A stretch of 12,989 nt of DNA from a virus (taxonomy: Duplodnaviria > Heunggongvirae > Uroviricota > Caudoviricetes). Positions 1-3,000 of the stretch are shown here, in pieces (position 1 is the first letter of the stretch; every line of letters begins with the position of its first letter). Made by a program: the position numbers. The DNA is taken from IMG/VR virus record IMGVR_UViG_2671180609_000015. The stretch is one strand, 5' to 3'.

Positions 1-3000
1 TAACCTGGAAGCGCGTCTTGATGCAGAAGTGGATGCCATTCTGGATGAACTGCTGGGCGCACCGGCAGCTCCGGAGCCGGAAGGCATCGCGGGTGAGGGG
101 AGTGCTTCAGACAGCGGTGACCCCACACCGGACAGCGACATGATGATGTAAGCATGCGTCAGGGACCATCGGTGTGTGCCGGTGGTCTTTTTTATTGTTG
201 TGAGCTTCCGGATTGCGGGAGGCGGGGTATGAACCAGATGGAAAAAATCACAACAGGTGTGTCATACACCACGTCAGCGGTGGGAACGGGCTACTGGTTC
301 CTGCAGTTGCTGGACAGGGTTTCCCCGTCTCAGTGGGCGGCAATAGGCGTGCTGGGGAGTCTGCTGTTTGGTCTGCTGACGTACCTGACGAACCTGTATT
401 TCAAAATCAGAGAGGACAGGCGTAAGGCGGCACGGGGAGAGTAGGTGATGAACCATGAAGAAATGAATCAGCGCTTCAGTCGTCTGGAAAATGAAATTGC
501 TGAACTGAATAAAAAACTGTCGGCGCTGATGCCTTCTGAAGATGAAAAAAAACGCCGCGATGAGCAGTTTGCTGCGTTTGACGATTATTGTCGGAAAGTG
601 ATGAGCAGAAATCTCGCAGAGTGTTTCAGTATTCATAATGATAATTGCAGTGAGCTGGAATGGGAGTGTAACCGGCCATCCTTTGTTGTATCCGGTGATG
701 ACGGGAAAATCACCATATCAGAAAATGGAAAAGTAACACTGCCATCGCACCAGCACAGTGAGACGCTCATTGAATTTGCCATTGATTACCTGAAGAACAA
801 TAAAAAACAGGGGCTGATGCAGCGCATTGGTCGTTGCATGGGGTATCTGCAGGTAGCCGCTGAGATTGAAGCGCTGGCCAGTGGTGCTGATAAGGATGCA
901 ATTGTGCGGGAGGCTCTTCTTCGTAATTTTAATACTCCACCCTTTAAAAAAGTGCCGGCTTACTGGCTTCATCCCGGACTGACTTATCTGAAAGTGCGTA
1001 TTTAGTGGGCCTGGGACAGCGGCTGAATATTTAATATATCCATGAACGCAAAAATCAGATACGGCCTGTCGGCTGCCGTTCTGGCGCTGATTGGTGCAGG
1101 GGCGTCTGCGCCTGAAATCCTCGACCAGTTTCTGGATGAAAAGGAAGGTAACCACACCACAGCATACCGTGATGGTGCGGGTATCTGGACCATCTGCCGT
1201 GGAGCCACCCGGGTGGATGGTAAGCCTGTTATTCCTGGCATGAAGCTGTCGAAGGAAAAATGCGACCGGGTTAACGCCATTGAGCGTGATAAGGCGCTGG
1301 CATGGGTGGAGAAAAACATCAGAGTGCCACTGACCGAACCCCAGAAAGCGGGGATCGCGTCATTCTGTCCGTACAACATTGGCCCCGGTAAGTGTTTCCC
1401 GTCGACGTTTTATAAACGAATTAATGCAGGCGATCGCAGGGGAGCGTGTGAAGCGATTCGCTGGTGGATTAAGGACGGAGGCAGAGACTGCCGTATCCGC
1501 TCAAATAATTGCTATGGTCAGGTATCCCGTCGTGACCAGGAGAGCGCGCTGGCGTGCTGGGGTATCGACAGATAAGCAGAATATTTTGCTGAAAAATGAC
1601 GTTGGCCAACGCGGACGGATAACACGAAATCCTGCGAACTGGCAAAACCTGAGTGAATAAAAGTAAAAACCCCGTTTGTTAGCAGCAGGTGGGGTTTTGT
1701 GTTTCCTGACTCCGGAAAAGTCAAAGGAGAAAGTGTGTTTGATTTTAGCAAACTGATTCGGGAGATTTGAGTGATGGCTGAAAAATTATCTACCTGGAAG
1801 TTCATTCTTATCTGGCTGGTGTTTGTGATTATGGTCTCCGGTTATTTCATCGGTCAGATACGCTGGTGGTGAAATGAACCGCGTACTGTGTGTGGTCATC
1901 ATTGCCCTGCTGGTGGCCTGTGGTGCGCTTAGTCTGGGGCTGAATCATTACCGTGACAACGCGCTCACCTACAAAGCGCAGCGCGATAAAAAAGCCAGAG
2001 AGCTGGAACAGGCGAATGCCACCATTACTGACATGCAGGTGCGCCAGCGTGATGTTGCTGCGCTCGATGCAAAATACTCGAGGGAATTAGCCGATGCGAG
2101 AGCTGAANNNNNNNNNNNNNNNNNNNNNNNNNNNNNNNNNNNNNNNNNNNNNNNNNNNNNNNNNNNNNNNNNNNNNNNNNNNNNNNNNNNNNNNNNNNNN
2201 NNNNNGCACTCAGTGCCTGAACTAAGTTTTGCTGATGCGCCGTATCGTCGCCGTATTCCTGCATTAACAGAGACCGCAGCCCGACAGGGAGACTCCTCTG
2301 CGAGAGTGTGCGGGGATAATCAAAAACGATACACACCGGGGTTTACCGCGTTAACGGAGCGCGGCGTTGTCCCCTCATAGTCGCTGGTCCGGTGCGATGG
2401 TGGAAGAAACCGGACTACATTACAAATGATAACCATTATCATTTTGCGGGTCCTCCTGGTGGGGTGGGCCTGAACACGGGGCGGGCGGCGCGGAAAAAGG
2501 CGCATTTTTTGATTTTTATGGCACCATCACCACCAGTGTAAGTTGTTGATATATAGAAAAATAAAAATTTTTAGTGTCGAATCTGGTTGTTTTTTGTTCA
2601 TCACTGGTGTGTGTTTACATAATTTTCAGGGGGAGTTATGGATCGTGAATTAAAAAATCTGCATCTGAATATTTCCCAACTGGCCGCATTATCCGGTGCT
2701 CATCGACAGACTGTTGCGGCTCGGGTAAAAAACATAAGCCCAGCCGGTGGTCATGAGAGCAATCTCAAACTGTACCGACTGACAGATATCCTTGCCGAGC
2801 TGATGAAAGCTCCTCTGCCTGTAGATAACGAGGAAATGGATCCTCATGCGCGTAAAGCATGGTACCAGTCAGAACGTGACCGACTGAAATTTGAGCAGGA
2901 AACTGGTCAGCTTGTGCCAGTCAGTGATGTCAGGCGGTCCTTTTCTGTCGTGGTGAAAGCGATAGTTCAGGTACTGGAAACCTGGCCTGACCGGCTGGAG

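Follow-up and report, generated by a model that had tools for sequence, protein, structure and literature searches.

In a 12,989-nucleotide (nt) stretch of viral DNA (Caudoviricetes; IMG/VR record IMGVR_UViG_2671180609_000015; hereafter the window), a satellite of the phage-inducible chromosomal island (PICI) type lies within the large terminase subunit gene (terL) of a lambdoid prophage and carries two cohesive-end (cos) sites, one on each side of its capsid gene. The first site has the cosB arm of the class to which the resident prophage belongs, and the second has the arm of a different phage class, typified by VT1-Sakai. From the comparison of these sequences, dual helper specificity is the likely meaning of the two satellite sites. 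A stronger version holds that the pair of specificities is deliberate, each matching one class of small terminase subunit (TerS) and cosB among the lambdoid phages of Shiga toxin-producing Escherichia coli (STEC), that packaging would be carried out by whichever phage is induced, and that the first site would serve only for initiation, so that premature termination would be avoided; this version is a serious possibility that falls somewhat short of an even chance. Multiple cos sites are already a known property of PICIs, and the helper-embedded PICI is also a known kind of satellite. The new features are the direct arrangement of the cos sites around the capsid gene, the lack of a detectable Rpp (the satellite protein that acts together with the helper TerS in another PICI, EcCICFT073), and the match of each arm to a natural phage class.

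Lambda-type cos sequences in the prophage and its satellite

Two repeat families were returned by the repeat finder in the window. A 130-nt pair (2478-2607 and 10463-10592) showed 90% identity, and a 27-nt family was located at 2442-2468, 10426-10452 (81%) and 12963-12989 (100%), with which direct reading and alignment agreed. The copies thus extend over 2442-2607 (A), 10426-10592 (B) and 12963-12989 (C, cut by the window end), all on the plus strand as direct repeats. A repeat of such length and identity cannot be due to chance. The initial annotation had reported a cos-like sequence of about 158 bp present three times, which the repeat finder and the alignment bore out. It gave C as 23 nt identical to A; the identity is correct, and the length is actually 27 of 27 nt.

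For the analysis of cos anatomy, the lambda ends were joined and aligned with A, B, C, the cos of VT1-Sakai, the cos of the CFT073 phage and the two cos sites of EcCICFT073. The cosQ heptamer GGGTCCT is present in A (2448-2454) and in C (12969-12975) and is identical to lambda 48473-48479. The distance from cosQ to the predicted nick is 31 nt here and 30 nt in lambda. The sequence ACG/GGGCGG, in which the slash marks the predicted nick, is invariant across the alignment, and the CG after the G-rich core is also kept, so that the core retains its CG flanks. The full pattern, ACG/GGGCGG followed after the core by CGG, was found in A, B and C (C as read in the related locus L002), and the core of B, at 13 nt, is one nucleotide longer than the 12-nt core of A and C. 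The heptamer, the nick region and the alignment as a whole agree with the earlier view that the layout resembles lambda cosN-cosB.

Homology and position identify copy A as the cos of a lambdoid prophage of the Stx type, whose TerS and TerL are of the DUF1441 and gpA types, respectively. The region 2442-2637 (plus strand) matches the cos region of phage CP-1639 at 100% identity and can be aligned with lambda cos. Downstream of cosQ, the predicted cohesive end GGGCGGGCGGCG, flanked by CG on both sides, occupies 2479-2490, its nicks being placed by homology with lambda. It is followed by an I2-like segment (2491-2517), a conserved block ATGGCACCATCACCACCA (2518-2535), an integration host factor (IHF) consensus on the minus strand found by pattern scan (2539-2551), and further conserved blocks at 2560-2582 and 2585-2604. 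Inverted 8-mers, CACCAGTG at 2531-2538 and CACTGGTG at 2602-2609, complete the arm. The IHF consensus WATCAANNNNTTR has just two occurrences in the window, in homologous places in the A and B arms. In a lambda-type cosB arm, TerS-binding R sequences are expected around an IHF site. An AT-rich spacer flanked by inverted repeats is found in A and in the arms of the VT1-Sakai class, C included, and B is without the inverted 8-mers of A. As expected for a lambdoid cos, and as had been proposed, A sits between the last lysis gene Rz (1874-2380) and terS (2638-3114), a position equivalent to that in CP-1639, VT1-Sakai and lambda.

Database matches of the repeat were confined to phage and satellite cos regions. 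Together with the alignment to lambda cos, this rules out a generic intergenic repeat, which had been named as an outcome that would overturn the cos interpretation. The ends of GenBank records were considered as physical cos ends and were rejected, as mEp460 records begin at terS or 4-5 nt off the predicted nick; record LR595868 begins 4-5 nt away from that nick and is likewise uninformative about a physical end.

Copies B and C both begin within the T-run of a GC-rich hairpin with a 6-bp stem. The terminator-like hairpin before B (10408-10429, plus strand; GCCGGA-GAAA-TCCGGC plus T-run) has a folding energy of -15.8 kcal/mol (z -4.07), and that before C (12945-12966, plus strand; GGCGGC-ACCA-GCCGCC plus T-run) has one of -15.1 kcal/mol (z -4.06). 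The statement that each copy follows a terminator hairpin therefore holds for B and C but only in a loose sense for A, where the preceding hairpin is AU-rich, as is the one at the equivalent place in lambda. The hairpin before B also precedes cos sites in the EcCICFT073 and Nissle PICIs. A simple terminator scan flagged none of the three copies, and promoter consensus scans and Rfam found no promoter and no known RNA in the repeat.

Members of this cos family vary in the length of the G-rich stretch enclosed by the ACG and CGG flanks: 11 nt in mEp460_4F5 (L015, 1-30), 12 nt in A (window 2479-2490), and 13 nt in B (10463-10475) and in VT1-Sakai (L003, about 4034-4060). Either the length of the cohesive end or the position of the nicks relative to the flanks must therefore differ among members. 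The difference between the A and B cores had been expected to matter for terminase specificity. This idea was not sustained, since specificity resides in TerS and cosB (PMC4669245) and the 13-nt and 11-nt cores occur in genuine phages, VT1-Sakai and mEp460, respectively. In addition, the half of cosN in which the A and B cores differ varies freely in lambda-like phages with cleavage unaffected (PMC4669245).

Reciprocal mosaic sites and two classes of TerS

When the copies were compared part by part, A and B were 80% identical in the left part from cosQ to cosN (40/50, including a 1-nt insertion), 100% identical over the next 27 nt, and 90.8% identical in the AT-rich arm. For A and C (full C from L002), the corresponding values were 100% (49/49), 85.7% over about 27 nt, and 57.6%. 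For C and VT1-Sakai, they were 98%, 89.3% and 80.7%. Read in this way, B and C are reciprocal mosaics, B consisting of a variant cosQ/cosN joined to the arm of the resident phage and C of a phage cosQ/cosN joined to the arm of the other class.

In B (plus strand, from the repeat finder and the alignment), the cosQ position reads AGGTACT, with two substitutions (10432-10438); the 13-nt core GGGCGGAGGGGCG lies at 10463-10475, and the arm of the resident-phage class extends over 10476-10589, with its IHF consensus at 10524-10536 (minus strand). In B, the 45 nt that directly follow the nick and another two blocks of the arm are identical to those of all phage arms. No block that is constant among phage arms has changed in B, whose changes fall in zones that vary among phages. 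For C, the first 27 nt are within the window. Beyond it, related loci continue with a cosN identical to that of phages, an arm of the VT1-Sakai class, an open reading frame (ORF) of 93 amino acids (aa) and attR. Over about 200 nt, the C arm shows about 85% identity to the cos arms of VT1-Sakai and of several Stx2a phages, and it keeps the inverted repeat TCATCATC/GATGATGA of that class. A and B match CP-1639 and 1720a-02. We refer to the CP-1639-like arm as class I and to the VT1-Sakai-like arm as class II. The satellite does share the packaging site of its neighbor, as had been proposed, with two sites homologous to A flanking its capsid gene. B-type cosN was also considered as the signature of a third phage class; this was rejected, as all 19 IMG/VR contigs with this core are in satellite context.

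The two arm classes are accompanied by two classes of TerS. Between them (window 2638-3114 and L003 4239-4715), TerS identity is complete over residues 91-158 and about 54% over residues 1-65, a mosaic breakpoint that suggests recombination within terS. Arm class and TerS class co-varied in 11 of the 11 phages examined, six of class I (window, CP-1639, L002, L005, L006 and L007) and five of class II (VT1-Sakai, Stx2a_12E129, L022, L029 and L031). The arm and the 5' end of terS travel as a unit in 226 complete genomes for class I and in 402 for class II.

A similar division is known from lambda, 21 and N15, in which specificity lies in the TerS N-terminal domain and cosB, and cosQ, the left cosN half and termination are shared (PMC4669245, PMC9026076). 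The order cosQ, cosN, I2 and cosB is shared with those phages, and the A and B arms include an IHF consensus. As in those phages, the classes are told apart by the cosB arm and by the N-terminal portion of TerS, and they have in common cosQ, the left cosN half and the TerL-binding part. In contrast to lambda, 21 and N15, TerS here belongs to DUF1441 and not to the Nu1 Pfam family, and the G-rich core is 11-13 nt long between conserved CG flanks, with nick positions that are predicted.

The satellite module recurs in many genomes. Among 5,426 complete genomes, about 144 carry the B unit and about 142 the C unit, and the module is also present in 19 IMG/VR contigs. Its order is hairpin, B (class I arm), small ORF, capsid fusion, hairpin, C (class II arm) and 93-aa ORF. 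Satellites of this family lie in terL of class I helpers (window, L002, L005, L006 and L007) and of class II helpers (L022, L029 and L031), and the same B-capsid-C module is found in chromosomal PICIs adjoining yejO in strains RM9387 and 88-3493 (L011 and L013). The class I B arm is present in all of these satellites, whatever the helper class or site. The class II C arm was found in all eight loci in which the C region was read (L002, L005, L006, L007, L011, L012, L013 and L022). In the genome of ERL03-1416, the satellite occurs together with a class II prophage elsewhere on the chromosome. The PICIs of L011 and L013 carry a RepA-helicase replication module, unlike the satellite of the window; the late module is therefore exchanged among satellites with different backbones.

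This recurrence also bears on a concern raised at the outset, that the repeats might reflect an assembly artefact, a collapsed tandem or a generic intergenic repeat unrelated to packaging. The window and several draft contigs do end at the C region, as assemblies do at a multi-copy repeat: the window stops 27 nt into C, and IMG/VR contigs L020, L028 and L032 end at the satellite capsid stop before C. The left half of cos is a multi-copy repeat in these genomes and is probably what breaks short-read assemblies there. However, the B-capsid-C order is present in about 140 complete, closed genomes, which rules out an artefact or tandem duplication, and PICIs with two cos sites have been published. 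With the repeat matching phage and satellite cos regions and aligning with lambda cos, we regard this explanation as having almost no chance of being correct.

Use of helper terminase by the satellite

If the two sites do provide dual helper specificity, packaging could proceed as follows. The satellite, in which no terminase was found, would use that of the active helper. TerS would bind the matching arm (B for class I and C for class II), and TerL, positioned by the bound TerS, would nick the adjacent cosN. Satellite concatemers would then be packaged rightwards. In lambda-like phages, initiation specificity is that of TerS and cosB, and termination is cosB-nonspecific and requires cosQ, cosN and I2 (PMC4669245). 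Because termination needs these elements, which C always has intact, it would occur at C. B in the window, with its damaged cosQ, may serve for initiation only, and termination there may be prevented. A fragment running from B to C would have mismatched ends; lambda tolerates a two-base end mismatch at an approximately four-fold loss (PMC4669245). Multimeric satellite DNA could also recircularise by recombination.

A number of points weigh against dual specificity. The ends of the B-to-C fragment differ in length, 13 versus 12 nt. The cosQ of B has two substitutions in a heptamer that is reported to be essentially invariant in lambda-like phages, its core GGGCGGAGGGGCG was found in IMG/VR in 19 contigs, all of satellite context, and the inverted 8-mers CACCAGTG/CACTGGTG of A have been lost, which could mean poor TerS binding or decay. 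These three features fit a decaying site as well as a specialized one. The placement of the changes in B outside the conserved blocks reached only marginal significance in a column-level test (p 0.003 to 0.1). The late module is nearly identical among satellites, so that its conservation partly reflects recent spread rather than selection and is weak evidence of function. The N-terminal part of TerS is taken as the DNA-binding part by analogy with lambda Nu1, and a sequence search for a relative of DUF1441 TerS with a solved structure, which would confirm a winged helix-turn-helix (HTH), found none. Finally, one of the two cos sites of EcCICFT073 is dispensable, and its deletion raises transfer (PMC6092414).

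Much of this would equally be expected if C were the only working cos of the satellite and B a decaying remnant, left by an old recombination with a class I phage or captured from such a phage, and carried along in the conserved late module. The damaged AGGTACT heptamer and the unusual satellite-confined 13-nt core, the lost 8-mers, the near-identity of the late module and the EcCICFT073 precedent, in which cos2 is dispensable and even lowers transfer (PMC6092414), all speak for such a relic. However, B has retained the first 45 nt past the nick and the two arm blocks that match all phage arms, together with the IHF consensus. Some satellites, that of RM9387 among them, have a B with canonical cosQ and a 12-nt cosN. 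B also persists in satellites of class II helpers and at the chromosomal site, and both cos sites of EcCICFT073 supported plasmid transfer (PMC6092414). Taken together, we consider a relic unlikely, though not to be dismissed, and dual specificity remains the favored reading.

EcCICFT073, described in 2018-19, has two functional cos sites, of which cos1 is required for transfer and is read by Rpp-TerS, and deletion of cos2 increases transfer (PMC6092414, PMC6739421). By analogy, the C arm could be a satellite-specific cosB read by a satellite protein together with the helper TerS, the 93-aa ORF being the candidate, and B could be a decoy soaking up unmodified terminase. The 93-aa ORF does stand after C, where rpp or terS would be. 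It is a small ORF conserved at the right end of many PICIs, EcCICFT073 included, and belongs to phrog_1561, which has no assigned function. However, its product showed no similarity to RppC, TerS or any HTH family in a PDB sequence search, Pfam and PHROGs, and the other satellite ORFs tested in the same way gave no TerS-like, Rpp-like or HTH match either. The search for an Rpp homolog among the 93-aa ORF and the other small satellite ORFs was therefore negative. EcCICFT073 has the 93-aa ORF beside rppA, so that this ORF is not the Rpp. The C arm is not unique to satellites, since natural class II phages have matching arms and its repeat blocks are conserved, and an rpp gene, which would encode a TerS-like winged HTH protein, beside a phage-unlike cos arm, as in EcCICFT073, was not encountered, both arms of the window satellite matching natural phage arms. 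Redirection of this type is thus improbable.

Interference offers another possible role, in which a helper-like cos on a high-copy satellite titrates terminase or provokes unproductive cutting and thereby lowers the helper yield. PICIs are known to hinder the packaging of their helpers (PMC6739421), terminase production is already delayed when a satellite resides in terL (PMC10111431), and B places a helper-class arm beside a non-canonical cosQ/cosN. On the other side, a satellite without terminase or a pac site needs at least one productive cos. Titration and productive use would be compatible. As the explanation of the sites, interference appears very improbable.

STEC carry many lambdoid prophages, and the satellites that ride on them move DNA between strains and lower the yield of phages, including toxin phages. 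If each cos matches one terminase class, the helper range would be written in two short DNA arms and could be predicted from sequence. This would provide a simple answer to why PICIs carry more than one cos and would imply that satellites collect cos cassettes, the PICI of strain Nissle 1917 having three from two terminase families.

The satellite, its insertion in terL and related islands

The resident prophage has the expected late genes around cos. Rz (1874-2380, plus strand; Pfam Phage_lysis, E 9.6e-12) is positioned as in CP-1639 and VT1-Sakai, and terS (2638-3114, plus strand), with a class I N-terminal part, matches DUF1441 (Pfam, E 2.3e-49) and the terminase small subunit (PHROG, E 5.7e-69). 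Only the N-terminal ATPase part of terL is present before the satellite that interrupts the gene (3111-4118, plus strand; Pfam GpA_ATPase, E 6e-82). The attL core TTGGATG lies within terL at 4109-4115, and the C-terminal endonuclease part is located after the satellite in L002, L005-L007 and L012. In closed genomes, the order after C is 93-aa ORF, terL nuclease part, portal gene and the phage's own capsid fusion. The att cores are TTGGATGT (attL) and TTGGATGG (attR, at 23971-23977 in L002). The joints read cattTTGGATGtaggg at attL in the window and cttcTTGGATGgagggg at attR in L002, and the intact site in CP-1639 reads cattTTGGATGgagggg; precise excision would therefore restore terL. All satellite genes are co-directional with terL. 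The N-terminal part of terL in the class II helper L022 is 100% identical to that of the window.

Based on these joints, the element is a PICI-type satellite of about 10.2 kb inserted in terL between the ATPase and nuclease parts, that is, a helper-embedded PICI. With terL split in this way, the prophage cannot produce terminase before the satellite has excised, a point that bears on the prediction of inducible Stx-type prophages independently of the dual-specificity reading. Helper-embedded PICIs were described in 2023, for example Eco567.11capE in prophage 50icd (Tommasini, Mageeney and Williams, PMC10111431). Like the present satellite, Eco567.11capE has a cos-like sequence in common with its helper, at about 90% identity, and its own capsid gene homolog. 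It differs from the present one in its target, which here is a gpA-type terL with the core TTGGATG. PMC10111431 reports one shared cos-like sequence of 258 bp and does not describe two sites of different arm class. Neither the TTGGATG core nor GpA-type targets were found in the part of its supplement text that was consulted. The gpA-type terL target with this core may thus be an additional site type for helper-embedded PICIs.

The satellite begins at 4116 (plus strand) and extends beyond the window end at 12989, its extent of about 10.2 kb being measured from att core to att core in L002. Its assignment was based on Pfam, the RefSeq annotation of related loci and the iteron count. It encodes an integrase (int, 4280-5518), an AlpA-like HTH protein (5511-5735; AlpA family in RefSeq for L006), a BRO-N protein (5795-6376), a DUF4222 protein (7326-7625) and a D5-type primase (D5_N, 7622-9370). 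Directly downstream of the primase gene, eight clustered copies of the iteron CCTCTACCC (at most one mismatch, both orientations) lie at 9385-9610, with none elsewhere in the window and 1.4 expected by chance; this cluster is probably the replication origin of the satellite. A single-stranded DNA-binding protein (SSB) gene follows at 9969-10391. The features of Gram-negative PICIs, namely unidirectional int, alpA, primase, an origin downstream of the primase gene and a size in the range of about 10-20 kb, are thus present. At 6333-7100 there is a 255-aa ORF whose last 90 or so residues match a phage "transcriptional repressor" PHROG (E 3e-34); in related genomes, a minus-strand YlcI/YnfO gene and a plus-strand Icd-like gene are annotated there instead.

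Between B and C, a small conserved ORF (10825-11052, plus strand; phrog_4934 by PHROG match) overlaps the start of the capsid gene, which encodes a fusion of a ClpP-like prohead protease and a major capsid protein (11049-12938, plus strand; Pfam Phage_capsid_4 and CLP_protease). The satellite fusion is 52% identical to the helper's own (L002, 26798-28777), which makes it a long-diverged paralog, and the helper portal proved unrelated to the small ORF. On these grounds, the idea that the capsid gene and a cos were recently captured together from the resident helper was rejected.

Other cos-carrying satellites were also compared. P4 (with the P2 cos), SaPIbov5 and SaPIbov4 resemble the present satellite in carrying the cos of the helper and no terminase, although their sequences and helpers are unrelated to those here. 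P4 makes small capsids with Sid and Psu. In the present satellite, the cos is lambda-type and no sid, psu or delta (capsid-size) domains were found by Pfam and PHROGs in the scanned ORFs, so that the likeness to P4 is limited to the module of int, Icd-like gene and D5-type primase. SaPIbov4 is reported to have two putative cos sites (PMC6092414).

EcCICFT073 is similar in several respects. It is a 10-20 kb island in which int, alpA, primase, SSB and the capsid gene follow in this order, and the 93-aa ORF again stands at the end. Lacking a TerL, it relies on the helper TerS. Both of its cos sites are lambda-type, their cosQ and cosN being phage-like, and one of them comes directly after the same GCCGGAGAAATCCGGC-T-run hairpin. 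Unlike in the window, however, its cos1 is direct and upstream of rppA, with an arm that resembles no phage and is recognized by Rpp-TerS. Its cos2, placed between rppA and the 93-aa ORF, has the inverted orientation, and its helpers have a lambda Nu1-type TerS and the cohesive end GGGCGGCGACCT. In the window satellite, the capsid gene lies between two direct sites, no Rpp can be detected, the arms match natural phage classes, and the helpers have DUF1441 TerS. In CFT073 (L008), the two sites are at 7520-7600 and 8270-8335, cos2 being inverted relative to cos1 and its arm bearing inverted CCGGACATG repeats.

The three cos sites of the Nissle 1917 PICI (L014, NZ_CP171242.1) are located at 4945-5110, 7385-7460 and 8270-8330. 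The first, located after SSB, is G-rich with a class II arm. A Nu1-like terS/rpp gene lies between the remaining two, which are lambda-type (GGGCGGCGACCT) and of which the one is direct and the other inverted. In a comparison with EcCICFT073, the first Nissle site looks like a clean insertion or deletion of about 170 bp right after the shared hairpin.

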